Positions 29,863 to 33,823 of a stretch of 64,000 bases of DNA are shown here, one piece after another. The notes beneath the pieces were generated by a model. That model had not been told where the DNA came from. It searched no databases and was given only the letters and a program-made list of their open reading frames with translations. A program made the position numbers and the translations under genes. Origin of the DNA: Escherichia coli (lineage in GTDB: Bacteria > Pseudomonadota > Gammaproteobacteria > Enterobacterales > Enterobacteriaceae); assembly GCF_041886205.1 (NCBI RefSeq), contig NZ_CP169029.1. One strand, 5' to 3'. How positions within the stretch are numbered: the first letter of the stretch is position 1; each line of letters opens with the position of its first letter.

Positions 29863-30609
29863 ATGGAACAAGCGCATACCCAGCTGATTGCCCAACTGAA
29901 CGAGCGTATTTTAGCGGCGGATAACACGCCGCTTTATATTAAGTTTGCCGAAACGGTAAAAAATGCCGTGCGCAGCGGGGTGCTGGAGCATGGCAATATT
30001 TTGCCCGGTGAGCGTGATTTAAGTCAGTTAACCGGCGTTTCGCGCATTACGGTGCGCAAGGCGATGCAGGCGCTGGAAGAAGAGGGTGTGGTGACGCGTT
30101 CGCGCGGTTACGGCACGCAGATCAACAACATCTTCGAATACTCGTTGAAAGAAGCGCGAGGTTTTTCTCAGCAGGTGGTATTGCGCGGGAAAAAGCCCGA
30201 TACGCTATGGGTTAACAAGCGTGTCGTGAAATGTCCCGAAGAAGTCGCGCAGCAGCTGGCGGTCGAAGCAGGAAGTGATGTCTTTTTGCTTAAGCGTATT
30301 CGCTATGTCGATGAAGAAGCGGTATCGATTGAGGAATCGTGGGTTCCGGCGCATTTAATTCATGATGTTGATGCCATCGGGATTTCACTTTATGACTATT
30401 TCCGCAGCCAGCACATTTACCCACAACGTACGCGTTCCCGCGTTAGCGCCCGGATGCCGGATGCCGAGTTTCAGTCACATATTCAGTTAGATAGCAAAAT
30501 ACCGGTGCTGGTGATCAAGCAAGTGGCGCTTGACCAACAGCAACGGCCTATTGAGTACAGCATTAGCCACTGTCGCAGCGATCTATACGTTTTTGTGTGC
30601 GAGGAGTAG
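29863..30609 (+). CDS. yegW: GntR/HutC-family transcriptional regulator
   Basis: 248 aa with an N-terminal winged-helix region and a UTRA-like C-terminus. Confidence 0.85.
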   Translation: MEQAHTQLIAQLNERILAADNTPLYIKFAETVKNAVRSGVLEHGNILPGERDLSQLTGVSRITVRKAMQALEEEGVVTRSRGYGTQINNIFEYSLKEARGFSQQVVLRGKKPDTLWVNKRVVKCPEEVAQQLAVEAGSDVFLLKRIRYVDEEAVSIEESWVPAHLIHDVDAIGISLYDYFRSQHIYPQRTRSRVSARMPDAEFQSHIQLDSKIPVLVIKQVALDQQQRPIEYSISHCRSDLYVFVCEE

Positions 30610-31548
30610 TTCCTCGCGCGTTGGCGCACAATCACCGCCCCGATGCCCGACAACCCACGACGCCACTGCATTGCCCAGTAATACGGCATCCGCCAGTGGC
30701 AGACCAGAGGCCAGCCCGGCAAGTACGCCACCGGCATGACTGTCGCCCGCCCCAATGGTGTCGACAACTTGCGTTGGAAATGCCGGAATGCAGCCAGAAG
30801 CGTCGTTGCTGAAATACCATGCGCCTTCTTTATCGAGACGAACGATCAACGGCGCGGCAAATTTCTCCTGCCATTGCTTGCCAAGTGTTGTTATCTCTGC
30901 GGATAAAGCAAAACGTTCGGCGGCAATCTCAGCCTCTTGACGATTGAGCGACACTAAAGGTCGACAGGCCATGATCCGCGCCAGTAATGCATCCGGGATA
31001 TCGCCAATACGTGGGCCAAAATCGATAAACGGCGTCACGTCTTGCAGCTCTTCCAGCCACTCCACTAACAATTCGCCGCAGGGCGAGGCCAGTTGATAAC
31101 CGGAAAAATAGAGCAGGCTGCCAGGCGCAACGGTTAATCGCGCCAGCCACTGGCGATTCCACTGATTTTCAACACCGCTGAATGACATAAAAGTGCGTTC
31201 GCCATCCGGCTCAACCAGCGCCAGACACCAGCCGTTATCACCTTCGGCGTTATCGATCAGGCTGATTAAGCCCTCTTTTGCCATCCGGTTGCGAATAATC
31301 TCCGCCCACACGCCCTGACCGAGCGGCAAGGCATTACCCGCTTCGATGCCGAGGCGCTTTAACGCCACGGCAATATTCAGTGCGCAGCCGCCAACGTTAA
31401 CGCTCTGCTGTTTCAGTTCGATATCGCACCCACGCCAGGGGAGGGCATAAGCGTCGGCGATCACATCAATGACCGCCGCGCCGACGACCATCACCGGCTG
31501 ACGCGAGGTTAATTCAGGCAGCAGCGTGTGTAATCGAGCGCCGCTCAT
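30583..31548 (-). CDS. yegV: PfkB-family sugar or nucleoside kinase
   Basis: 321 aa with ribokinase-like motifs (GAAVIDV..., DTIGAGDSHAGG). Confidence 0.85.
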   Translation of the reverse strand: MSGARLHTLLPELTSRQPVMVVGAAVIDVIADAYALPWRGCDIELKQQSVNVGGCALNIAVALKRLGIEAGNALPLGQGVWAEIIRNRMAKEGLISLIDNAEGDNGWCLALVEPDGERTFMSFSGVENQWNRQWLARLTVAPGSLLYFSGYQLASPCGELLVEWLEELQDVTPFIDFGPRIGDIPDALLARIMACRPLVSLNRQEAEIAAERFALSAEITTLGKQWQEKFAAPLIVRLDKEGAWYFSNDASGCIPAFPTQVVDTIGAGDSHAGGVLAGLASGLPLADAVLLGNAVASWVVGHRGGDCAPTREELLLAHKNV

Positions 31549-32549
31549 ACCGCCTCCCGTTGTTGACGATATTTCGCCAGCGCTGTGGCATAGCGGTTGA
31601 AATCAAGCTGATTTACCGCATCCAGTTCCGCCTTTAACGCAGGATCGATAGCGTTAACGCCATGCAACGCGCCGCAAATCGCCGTCGCCATAGCGCCGAT
31701 GGTGTCTGTGTCGCCGCCAAGGTTAGCGCACAGGACGGCGCAGCGATTCGGGTCGGTTTGTGCCAGTTCAACCAGCGCAATGGCGCACGGAACGGACTCA
31801 ATAGTGCTGGTACCTGCGCCAACGACCTGGTAAAGCTGTTCGCTGGCGGATTCGGTGCCGTCGGCATTGCGCACAATTTTCAGCGCAATCTCCAGACGTG
31901 CTGCCAGTGAGGCGCTGAAGGTAGTGATGCGTTTTTGCTGTGCATGTCGCGCAATTGAAGGCAGGGAATCAACAATCGCTGACCAGCTTTCTCCGTCAAT
32001 GGCACGAGAAATCGCCCATGCGATGACTACCGCACCTGCAACTGCCAGATCGGATTTATGGGTCGGGCTCGACGCCAGCGCCACATCATCAATAAAGGAA
32101 TCAACATCACGCGCCGGAAGCAAACAACCTAATGGCGAGACGCGCATCGCTGCGCCGTTGGTCACGCCGTTGTTTTCCAGTTCAGCAACGGGTTTACCGT
32201 CGCGAATGGCGTTAAGCGCAATCTTCGAGGTCGGACCTAGTACGTTTTTGTTAAAGGCGTCGAAACGCAGCGCCCAGTCGAGAATATTACGCCCAATCAG
32301 ATCCGGATCGATCTTGCCTTCACGTTCCAGTAACGCATCCGCCAGACACAGCGCCATCGAGGTATCGTCGGTGAATTCGGCGCGGTTAAAATAACAGGCC
32401 GCGTTATTCTCCTTTGGTCCAGGAAGAAAACGGTCAATCCAGCCAAAGTGTGCTTTAACGCGGCTGCGTGGCCAAAGCTCGGAGGGCATCCCCATCGCAT
32501 CCCCTAACGCCTGCCCATAAAGAGCACCGAGAATACGTTCTGTTTTCAT
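31545..32549 (-). CDS. yegU: ADP-ribosylglycohydrolase family protein
   Basis: 334 aa, MKTERILGALYGQALGDAMGMPSE (ARH/DraG-type N-terminus); stop overlaps the yegV start. Confidence 0.85.
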   Translation of the reverse strand: MKTERILGALYGQALGDAMGMPSELWPRSRVKAHFGWIDRFLPGPKENNAACYFNRAEFTDDTSMALCLADALLEREGKIDPDLIGRNILDWALRFDAFNKNVLGPTSKIALNAIRDGKPVAELENNGVTNGAAMRVSPLGCLLPARDVDSFIDDVALASSPTHKSDLAVAGAVVIAWAISRAIDGESWSAIVDSLPSIARHAQQKRITTFSASLAARLEIALKIVRNADGTESASEQLYQVVGAGTSTIESVPCAIALVELAQTDPNRCAVLCANLGGDTDTIGAMATAICGALHGVNAIDPALKAELDAVNQLDFNRYATALAKYRQQREAV

Positions 32550-33823
32550 TTAACTTCCCCTTGTGTCAACGCAATATCGCGATCATCGACCTTGATAGCC
32601 GTAATTTCGTTGTCGGATTCGCGGAAAAAAATCATGAACAGCACGGCGATAATGGCAATCATCACCGCGCCGAAAGTCCACATCCCGGACCAGTTGAAAG
32701 TCAGCCCGTTTACCGGTTCCGGATAAGCGAACATCTTTTCCATCATCACACCGCCAAGACGATAGCCGAGCAAACTGCCGAAGCCCTGGCAGCAGAGCGT
32801 GATCAGCCCCTGCGCGGCGGTACGCATATGCACGGGGGCTTTTTTATCGACATAGATGTAAGCGGTAACGTAGTAAAAATCGTAACTTACGCCGTGAAGC
32901 AAAATACCGAGGAACAGTAACGCGTAAGTGAAATATTCATCCGCACTACCGTAAATAAAGAAGCCATAGCGGATCGCAGCGGTGACCAGACCAAGCAATA
33001 ATACCTTTTTGATACCAAAGCGTTTAGTGAAAAACGGCAATGCCAGCATAAAGAAGATTTCAGAGAACTGGCCGAGCGTCATCCAGCCGGTGGCGTTTTT
33101 CATGCCAACTTCGGTCAGATAACCGTTGGCAAAGATGTAATAGAACGCCAGTGGCATCGCAAACAGGAATGAACAGAAGAAAAAGACGAGGAAGTTTTTA
33201 TCGCGCAGCAGGATCAGCGCATCCAGGCCGAGCATGACTTTAATGTCCATTTTGCCGGTGCTTTTTGGCGGCGTGTCGGGCAGGAAAAACGCAAACACAC
33301 CGAGCAGAGCAGAACTTCCGGCGGTAATCAGCAGCGGGATGTTAGTCGGTGAGATATCGGCATACCCCAGCATTTGCGGCAAGAAACCACATGCCAGACC
33401 AGAGGCAATCCAGCCGATAGTGCCCATCACACGAATGCGCGGGAAATCACGCTCCACATCCGGCACGTTGGCAAAAGCGATACTGTTAGTCAGCGCAATG
33501 GTCGGCATATAGGTTAGCGAGTAGGCCAGCAGTAACGGGAAGAACCCGGCAAAAGTGGTCTGTTGCGCAGCGAAATACATCAGCAGCGCGCCTGCGAACA
33601 TCAATACCGCCAGCACTTTTTGCGCCGAGAAAAAGCGGTCAGTGATGGAGCCAACCAGAATTGGCGACAGGATCGCCGCAATGGCTGTGCAGGCATACGA
33701 CCAGCCAATTTCTCCGGCACTAAAACCGCTTTTACTTAACCACAACCACAATGGCACAAACCACGCGCCCCAGATAAACCATTCAACAAACATCATGAAC
33801 GACAGCTTTGCTGTTGTTTTCAT
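32546..33823 (-). CDS. yegT: Nucleoside:H+ symporter (NHS family MFS transporter)
   Basis: 425-aa polytopic membrane protein; stop overlaps the yegU start. Confidence 0.85.
   Translation of the reverse strand: MKTTAKLSFMMFVEWFIWGAWFVPLWLWLSKSGFSAGEIGWSYACTAIAAILSPILVGSITDRFFSAQKVLAVLMFAGALLMYFAAQQTTFAGFFPLLLAYSLTYMPTIALTNSIAFANVPDVERDFPRIRVMGTIGWIASGLACGFLPQMLGYADISPTNIPLLITAGSSALLGVFAFFLPDTPPKSTGKMDIKVMLGLDALILLRDKNFLVFFFCSFLFAMPLAFYYIFANGYLTEVGMKNATGWMTLGQFSEIFFMLALPFFTKRFGIKKVLLLGLVTAAIRYGFFIYGSADEYFTYALLFLGILLHGVSYDFYYVTAYIYVDKKAPVHMRTAAQGLITLCCQGFGSLLGYRLGGVMMEKMFAYPEPVNGLTFNWSGMWTFGAVMIAIIAVLFMIFFRESDNEITAIKVDDRDIALTQGEVK

Follow-up and report, generated by a model that had tools for sequence, protein, structure and literature searches.

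Our analysis concerns the yegTUV genes of Escherichia coli and the adjacent regulator gene yegW (ggaR), which lie in a 64,000-nucleotide stretch of contig NZ_CP169029.1 (assembly GCF_041886205.1), hereafter the window. We propose, with about even confidence, that yegTUV is a self-contained cassette for the uptake and breakdown of a non-canonical riboside, that it is repressed by YegW, and that its kinase acts before its hydrolase. yegTUV is a known, annotated and partly characterised locus, and the regulatory part of this proposal has already been published; the central inference of the initial annotation of this DNA, a YegW-controlled uptake, glycohydrolase and kinase module for a ribosyl compound, is correct but largely in the literature. 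The additions of this analysis are a predicted operator, the occurrence of the cassette across phyla, together with its fusion proteins, and a mechanism in which phosphorylation would precede hydrolysis by an enzyme of the ADP-ribosylglycohydrolase (ARH) fold.

In the proposed scheme, YegW would hold yegTUV off through direct GGTAT repeats that overlap the -10 element and spacer of the promoter. When the inducer is present, YegT would import an uncharged riboside by proton symport, and YegV would phosphorylate the 5'-OH of the intact riboside and so trap it in the cell. The binuclear Mg/Mn centre of YegU would then hold the cis-2',3'-diol of the ribose and hydrolyse the C1' glycosidic bond of the riboside 5'-phosphate, releasing the aglycone and leaving ribose-5-phosphate to enter central metabolism. 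The steps would parallel those of pseudouridine catabolism (PsuT/PsuK/PsuG), an enzyme of the ARH fold taking the place of PsuG, and the likeliest physiological effector of YegW would be the phosphorylated intermediate, not ADP-glucose.

The four genes on which this proposal rests are:

29863 to 30609, plus strand: yegW (ggaR), intact open reading frame (ORF) of 248 amino acids
30583 to 31548, minus strand: yegV, intact ORF of 321 amino acids
31545 to 32549, minus strand: yegU, intact ORF of 334 amino acids
32546 to 33823, minus strand: yegT, intact ORF of 425 amino acids, first gene of the operon

The positions given for these ORFs and for the neighbouring yegX in the initial annotation are confirmed, and the RefSeq annotation agrees, placing the same five yeg genes between thiMD on the upstream side and fbaB (start 34080) on the downstream side. 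Within the operon, yegT meets yegU and yegU meets yegV in an ATGA stop/start overlap on the minus strand, as had been described. The orientation of the regulator needs correcting: yegW had been called divergent from the operon and is in fact convergent, tail-to-tail with yegV, the 3' ends of the two genes sharing 27 bp (30583-30609), while the divergent neighbour of yegT is fbaB. The yegV-yegW pair is a listed excludon (overlapping convergent transcripts) in an RNA-seq survey of E. coli (PMC12288877). Pfam bears out the family assignments made earlier, namely NHS for YegT, ADP_ribosyl_GH for YegU, PfkB for YegV, GntR with UTRA (HutC) for YegW and GH25 for YegX. YegU, YegV, YegW and YegX stay below the cutoff of every NCBIfam equivalog model, so that current curation gives these proteins no specific function. 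In RefSeq, 5425 E. coli records match the 5.1-kb yeg region, with identities of 95-99.3%; among 5426 complete E. coli genomes, 5420 contain 80% or more of it. The E. coli record NZ_CP139808.1 (4370988-4378219) has IS5/IS903B-family transposase insertions in the yegTUV region, where the match is in three pieces over 7.2 kb.

YegW combines an N-terminal winged helix-turn-helix domain (Pfam GntR, PF00392, 3.1e-16) with a C-terminal effector domain (UTRA, PF07702, 2.3e-36), and was renamed GgaR by Saito et al. in 2024 (PMC10819704). In that study Northern analysis identified yegTUV as a single 3.3-kb mRNA, undetectable in the wild type and about 30-fold derepressed in a yegW deletion, which leaves fbaB expression untouched (PMC10819704). 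Binding of GgaR to the yegT promoter was shown by electrophoretic mobility shift assay (EMSA), and chromatin immunoprecipitation on microarrays (ChIP-chip) placed its sole genomic target in the spacer between fbaB and yegT, with a weaker site 571-869 bp into yegT (PMC10819704). The co-regulation of the three genes that the initial annotation supposed is therefore already on record, as one transcription unit under YegW repression.

The same study describes no binding consensus for GgaR (PMC10819704). Alignment of the regions upstream of yegT from 14 Enterobacterales and Vibrio genomes, Hafnia and Rahnella among them, shows a single conserved island, CAAAGGTATTTAAAAGGTATTATTAAnTGGTAT, amid diverged DNA. 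The predicted elements are:

33868 to 33896, minus strand: predicted primary GgaR operator, three direct GGTAT repeats with spacings of 11 and 13 bp, 45-73 bp upstream of the yegT ATG
33001 to 33016, minus strand: predicted secondary, intragenic GgaR operator, GGTATCAAAAAGGTAT, at +808 to +823 of yegT
33878 to 33907, minus strand: candidate sigma-70-like yegT promoter, a consensus match only (9 of 12), with -35 TTCACC, an 18-nt spacer and -10 TATTAT

The GGTAT repeats overlap the candidate promoter. Matches to GGTAT-N5-9-GGTAT number three in the window against 0.26 expected by chance; two are in the primary island and the third is the intragenic site. The primary island falls within the 190-bp EMSA probe-2, and the intragenic site within both the weaker-binding EMSA probe-5 (571-869 bp into the yegT ORF) and the second ChIP peak (PMC10819704). 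The intragenic motif also occurs in yegT of Superficieibacter, Enterobacter, Pectobacterium and Vibrio ruber, and of the 20 Enterobacterales and Vibrio loci that extend to the upstream region, 19 have a relaxed form, GGTA[TC]-N5-9-GGTA[TC], ahead of the module. We predict that GGTAT-N6-GGTAT, found in the window at the two ChIP- and EMSA-mapped sites alone, is the GgaR operator, kept out to Vibrio; the motif independently recovers both experimentally mapped sites, and the prediction is new to this analysis. The enterobacterial GGTAT operator was not found in Firmicutes and Actinobacteria modules and is therefore of no use for delimiting a wider regulon.

With one genome taken per species, a profile scan brought up 78 loci with YegU relatives, the neighbourhoods of which were compared; in a representative library at 50% identity, YegU homologues below 1e-30 make up 234 clusters. 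Enterobacteriaceae keep the order fbaB-yegT-yegU-yegV-yegW-thiD, and yegTUVW is found too in Pectobacterium, Hafnia, Rahnella and Vibrio. In 61 of the 78 loci, spanning Proteobacteria, Firmicutes, Actinobacteria, Chloroflexi and Thaumarchaeota, the ARH gene has a YegV-like PfkB gene no more than 3.5 kb away, and half of the loci (39/78) have a GntR-type regulator. The transporter is the variable part as judged by Pfam: 18 loci have an NHS symporter, 16 an NCS1 permease between the two enzyme genes, and 12 a PnuC-family facilitator after the kinase gene. Fusion proteins with both domain orders, PfkB-ARH and ARH-PfkB, are among the closest cluster representatives of YegU, and they constitute strong sequence evidence for YegU- and YegV-type enzymes acting in one pathway. 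Around 26 non-enterobacterial modules no extra enzyme turns up repeatedly, no Pfam family being present in more than 4 of 99 flanking ORFs, which argues that the cassette is self-contained.

A riboswitch ahead of a module would have disclosed its ligand, but none of nine loci in which the module is without a regulator has a riboswitch adjacent to it; tetrahydrofolate and thiamine pyrophosphate (TPP) riboswitch matches near those nine lie several kb away and are unrelated. The purB gene beside the module in Hafnia, Edwardsiella and Rahnella was judged a housekeeping neighbour belonging to the purB-hflD-mnmA region, and no clue to function. The ARH homologues of the Chloroflexi loci L053, L060 and L061 have a different context, with a SorC-type regulator and a xylose-isomerase-like TIM-barrel protein as flanking neighbours. 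Variant architectures include a 692-amino-acid protein with two tandem ARH domains (P0161) and a 714-amino-acid ARH with a long C-terminal extension, found beside genes for a PfkB kinase, a second ARH and an ABC transporter (L059:4820-6964).

YegU matches PF03747 over profile positions 1-285 of 287 (2.2e-66; 224.9 bits against a gathering score of 26.2). Its residues E24, T60, D61, D62, D280, D282 and T283 align to E41, T76, D77, D78, D314, D316 and T317 of human ARH3, and the binuclear-metal ligands and the Glu-flap glutamate are invariant or nearly so in sets of 26 and 62 homologues. Absence of the ARH catalytic residues had been named as an observation that would count against the initial annotation; all of the binuclear-metal ligands are present. 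An AlphaFold2 model (pLDDT 96.9, pTM 0.95) has the all-alpha ARH fold, and its best Foldseek match is MJ1187 (1t5j; TM-score 0.82-0.90), followed by ARH3 and DraG, with probability 1.00. Sequence and fold searches of the PDB found no characterised small-molecule ARH, only the uncharacterised MJ1187, a Thermus thermophilus ARH-related protein, ARH3, DraG and Tri1. The YegU subfamily has a conserved motif of its own, GP[ST][ST][KR]. By alignment, the ARH3-type adenine clamp (Phe143/Tyr149) is missing in YegU, where N126 and V129 stand instead and Ser148 is deleted, and these columns are non-aromatic across the YegU family; the comparison covers ARH3-type residues only, the DraG- and ARH1-type sites (Tyr212, Tyr263) lying outside its scope. 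The missing clamp argues for a YegU substrate that is smaller than, or different from, ADP-ribose.

YegU shares with ARH3, ARH1, DraG and Tri1 the fold, the binuclear metal ligands, the Glu-flap glutamate and the TNG/AMR loop. These enzymes reverse the ADP-ribosylation of proteins or poly(ADP-ribose), and YegU might be expected to do the same, stripping ADP-ribose from protein or nucleic acid while the transporter and kinase genes are incidental. Its family membership and intact catalytic centre, and a weak NCBIfam similarity to DraG and Tri1, are consistent with such a role, which we nevertheless consider very improbable. Both equivalog cutoffs are missed (DraG, 79.5 against 337 bits; Tri1, 69 against 490), no ADP-ribosyltransferase partner was found in any locus, and the adenine-stacking residues of ARH3 are lacking. 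YegU also sits in a small-molecule uptake operon, its gene translationally coupled between those of a transporter and a kinase, and the ARH domain is found fused to PfkB kinases elsewhere.

The case for phosphorylation before hydrolysis begins with the kinase. YegV is a PfkB protein (Pfam, 2.5e-56) that misses both ribokinase models, with 82.1 bits on TIGR02152 (4.3e-23; cutoff 299.65) and 59.7 on NF008353 (cutoff 341). E. coli ribokinase (RbsK) contacts ribose via Asn14, Asp16, Gly42, Lys43, Asn46, Glu143 and Asp255 (PMC9604405), and Lys43 and Glu143, reported to be strictly conserved among ribokinases, fill the space of the nucleobase (PMC7797080). We aligned 53 ARH-linked kinases with RbsK, the sequence of which was verified against 1gqt. 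YegV retains D28, G53-G54, N58 and D269 as equivalents of the diol-binding RbsK D16, GG pair and N46 and of the catalytic D255; the D16, G42 and D255 columns are invariant, and N46 is kept in 52 of the 53 kinases. RbsK K43 becomes Cys55 in YegV, in a column that holds Cys in 42 of the 53 and Lys in none, and N14 becomes Val26, in a column that is always hydrophobic; the kinase domains of the PfkB/ARH fusions likewise lack Lys43. From this pocket, YegV is predicted to be a riboside 5'-kinase and not a canonical ribokinase.

A second line comes from loci that dispense with the kinase. A kinase gene is present in all 45 loci with an NHS, NCS1 or PnuC transporter and absent from all three with a phosphotransferase system (PTS) EIIBC component (Fisher p = 5.8e-5), a difference that depends on three loci only, which are not phylogenetically independent and whose ARHs are 33-35% identical to YegU. 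In these loci (L051, ~5051-8978; L063, ~5094-9014; L070, ~5290-8972) the ARH gene follows genes for a BglG-type antiterminator (CAT_RBD+PRD) and the PTS EIIBC. Since EIIBC phosphorylates its substrate during import and the kinase is absent, the ARH substrate there should be phosphorylated, which implies an ARH-fold phospho-glycoside hydrolase fed by the PTS. The third line is the chemistry of the family: all characterised ARH substrates carry a 5''-phosphorylated ribose, the cis-2'',3''-diol of which is needed for binding the two metals (PMC7050489). Kinase pocket, kinase-less PTS loci and family chemistry favour the kinase before the hydrolase, and the order given in the initial annotation, uptake, de-glycosylation and then phosphorylation, is probably reversed.

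Several observations weigh against this order or against the scheme as a whole. The best database matches of YegV are still ribokinases (PDB ribokinases at 1e-15). The Glu143 column, where the alignment is ambiguous, holds Ala in YegV by MAFFT or Gln by HMMER, and Glu in 14 of the 53 ARH-linked kinases. To these may be added the small and related set of PTS loci, the published effects of ADP-glucose that are taken up below, and the finding that enzymology of YegU or YegV does not appear in the open-access literature searched. Stereochemistry is a further difficulty: ARH1 and ARH3 are specific for alpha-1'' linkages (PMC7050489), and ordinary nucleosides and nicotinamide mononucleotide (NMN) are beta, so that either the substrate is an alpha-riboside or the YegU subfamily has changed its stereospecificity.

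The ribokinase matches of YegV, which extend to its closest family model, and the Glu-bearing members of its family would suit a pathway in which YegT imports the riboside, YegU cleaves it to ribose and aglycone, and YegV serves as a dedicated ribokinase that makes ribose-5-phosphate. Such a pathway would resemble that of the Bacteroidetes rus loci, which pair true ribokinases with ribose-liberating enzymes, either ADP-ribosylglycohydrolases or nucleoside hydrolases (bioRxiv 10.1101/574913); the rus loci of Bacteroides differ from yegTUV in that they are SusC/D-based outer-membrane systems in which ribose is sensed, and the order there is probably hydrolase first. For yegTUV we regard hydrolysis before phosphorylation as unlikely, though it deserves to be taken seriously. 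YegV is far under the ribokinase equivalog cutoff, the family and the fused kinase domains are uniformly without Lys43 and hydrophobic residues take the Asn14 position, and E. coli already has RbsK. The kinase-less loci, moreover, force a phosphorylated ARH substrate where they occur, in keeping with the 5''-phosphorylated ribose of the known ARH substrates.

Returning to kinase-first breakdown, we suggest, a little less confidently than for the cassette itself, that the YegU subfamily represents the first ARH-fold enzymes in small-molecule catabolism, acting as phosphoribohydrolases for riboside 5'-phosphate made by PfkB kinases, in a cassette found in bacteria and some archaea. The closest functional parallel is PsuT (YeiM), PsuK (YeiC) and PsuG (YeiN), in which, as in our scheme, a transporter and a PfkB riboside 5'-kinase are joined by a 5'-phosphate glycosidase to give ribose-5-phosphate. 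The kinase pocket of PsuK is open for the base, with the Lys43 and Glu143 of ribokinase replaced (PMC7797080). YegU, with its all-alpha ARH fold and binuclear metal site, belongs to another family than PsuG; YegV scores 19.1 bits on the pseudouridine-kinase model (cutoff 540); and YegT, unlike PsuT, is of the NHS family and did not bind uridine, a pseudouridine analogue. We infer that yegTUV works like the PsuK/PsuG pathway but is not a member of it.

YegT matches Nuc_H_symport (PF03825, 3.4e-183) and passes TIGR00889 (652.6 bits, cutoff 446.1), and it keeps the GxxxD protonation motif of transmembrane helix 10 as G311-V-S-Y-D315. A crystal structure of YegT at 3.1 Å was published in 2025; in isothermal titration calorimetry the purified protein does not significantly bind uridine, adenosine, cytidine or guanosine, canonical nucleosides of the kind that NupG and XapB handle, and the NupG residues that contact uridine (F143, Y318, F322, N228) are not conserved in it (PMC11979927). 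The ribosylated or nucleoside-like substrate of the initial annotation is still the best reading, because three unrelated transporter families (NHS, NCS1 and PnuC) fill the transporter role. The hosts of the cassette, which are gut, soil, plant-associated and marine organisms, point to a ubiquitous compound.

As leading substrate candidate we weakly favour a pyridine riboside similar to nicotinamide riboside (NR). One hint is the PnuC-type transporters of 12 Firmicutes loci, which pass the PnuC model of NCBI. Another is a packed row of plus-strand genes in Leuconostoc holzapfelii (L042:5160-11258), encoding an NrtR-like regulator (NUDIX + NrtR_WHD), an MFS protein, a NadC-like quinolinate phosphoribosyltransferase, an ARH, an NCS1 permease and a PfkB kinase, which by its gene content links the cassette to NAD/pyridine metabolism in one genome. 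In a Blautia metagenome-assembled genome (L052:2722-8990, plus strand) nadA-nadB-nadC, a NiaR-like regulator gene (HTH_11 + 3H), a cytidylate-kinase-like gene and a GNAT gene precede an ARH homologue with 35% identity and no adjacent PfkB gene. The alpha-1'' specificity of ARH1 and ARH3 speaks against pyridine ribosides, NMN being beta, and the other candidates are alpha-ribosides (alpha-ribazole-type, 2'-O-alpha-ribosyladenosine), compounds similar to aminoimidazole riboside (AIRs; compare Salmonella STM4066) and modified nucleosides.

The PnuC-containing loci invite comparison with nicotinamide-riboside uptake by PnuC and NadR, since in both a PnuC-family transporter has a dedicated kinase alongside. 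Uptake by PnuC is facilitated diffusion and needs trapping by a kinase. The cassette kinase is of the PfkB type and not NadR or Nrk, the E. coli transporter is NHS, and a glycohydrolase follows, so that the cassette route looks catabolic or base-salvaging and does not appear to lead from NMN to NAD. Salmonella offers a comparison with the same three-part architecture, STM4065-STM4066-STM4067, where a permease is again combined with a PfkB riboside kinase and a putative ADP-ribosylglycohydrolase. Dougherty and Downs reportedly described in 2003 that this operon is controlled by a GntR-type repressor encoded next to it, STM4068. The Salmonella cassette is a paralogue and not the orthologue of yegTUV, Salmonella also having a YegU of 84% identity, and the STM4066 structure is not among the PDB matches of YegV at E<1e-8. 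STM4066 has been identified experimentally as an AIRs kinase, and Salmonella that has lost the ARH gene persists less well in the gut of pigs (PMC3161100).

A quite different view of the locus was taken by Saito et al. (2024), in which the function of YegTUV is to import, make or process ADP-glucose or related ADP-sugars, and YegW is an ADP-glucose sensor that sets glycogen accumulation. The only published effector supports it: ADP-glucose, and neither ADP nor glucose, frees GgaR from the promoter probe in EMSA (PMC10819704). Glycogen doubles to triples in the yegW deletion, the yegV deletion was scored low-glycogen, and high glucose raises yegTUV mRNA about 3-fold (PMC10819704). The release is an in vitro result from EMSA, however; the glucose effect is far under the roughly 30-fold derepression of the yegW deletion; and the glycogen shifts could be indirect, arising from overexpressed transporter, kinase and hydrolase. 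The comparative data fit poorly as well, with no glg gene beside the cassette in any of the 78 loci, partner transporters of the PnuC and NCS1 types, the solutes of which are small and uncharged or vitamin-like and do not include nucleotide sugars, and a YegU without the ARH3 adenine clamp. We consider the ADP-glucose model improbable, and ADP-glucose may mimic the true phosphorylated effector of YegW.

The neighbouring yegX gene had been singled out in the initial annotation for its association with a salvage module:

28993 to 29811, plus strand: yegX, intact ORF

YegX matches Pfam GH25 (2.6e-54) and resembles phage endolysin families (PHROG). Its catalytic residues D71 and D161-x-E163 are intact and it has one N-terminal hydrophobic segment (residues 11-27), which agrees with its earlier description as a muramidase-like GH25 protein that has a membrane anchor or signal at its N-terminus. 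The association itself appears to be an Escherichia-specific juxtaposition and not a functional one. yegX lies 51 bp upstream of yegW on the same strand in essentially all E. coli genomes, and among the loci examined it adjoins yegW solely in those of E. coli (2 of 79), being missing from this position in every non-Escherichia locus; in Citrobacter, Enterobacter, Cedecea, Mangrovibacter and others yegW directly abuts thiD. Outside Escherichia and Shigella, YegX is closest to GH25 proteins from Sphingobacteriaceae (Solitalea, Pedobacter, Daejeonella), with which it shares 44-55% identity, and its top 120 matches include no other Enterobacteriaceae. yegX is best explained as a lineage-specific Escherichia insertion between thiD and yegW, not a member of the module, and judging by its homologues was probably acquired horizontally by the Escherichia lineage; in GC content neither yegX nor yegTUV shows a compositionally foreign sign.

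The physical adjacency in E. coli could also mean that YegX is a partner, a muramidase that releases or processes a cell-wall glycoside which is then fed to YegTUV. We find this hardly credible, given the distribution and the suggestion of horizontal acquisition just described, the location of the sole ChIP-chip target of GgaR, with no binding at yegX (PMC10819704), and the fact that muropeptides contain no ribose. A contig of Escherichia albertii NBRC 107761 (L003) has yegU-yegV-yegW, and the 4 kb downstream of yegW contain neither yegX nor thiD; another E. albertii record (P0273) encodes a YegX homologue of 89% identity.

On the far side of yegX, thiMD is under its own TPP riboswitch, independent of the yeg genes. 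The riboswitch, which is annotated in E. coli, precedes thiM at 27212-27308 on the plus strand and, with 71.2 bits, exceeds the gathering score. The adjacency of thiMD was considered as a hint at thiamine or AIRs metabolism and set aside, as synteny kept in Enterobacteriaceae without a functional link. Just 3' of fbaB, at 35163-35233 on the plus strand, is a naRNA4/CssrE-like element of the repetitive extragenic palindromic (REP) type, at 56.1 bits slightly under the gathering score of 59.5.

yegTUV belongs to a small group of conserved E. coli operons for which a regulator and a crystal structure are known and a substrate is not. Should the kinase-then-ARH scheme be true, the ADP-glucose/glycogen model for GgaR would be due for re-reading, and a large ARH subfamily now annotated as ADP-ribosylation erasers would gain a metabolic role. 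Were the substrate a pyridine riboside (NR, nicotinic acid riboside (NaR), reduced nicotinamide riboside (NRH) or an anomer), YegU-type enzymes would be the missing gene of NMN nucleosidase activity. The scheme would also describe a route by which gut Firmicutes and Enterobacteriaceae commonly scavenge ribosides; the paralogous Salmonella cassette already aids gut persistence in pigs.

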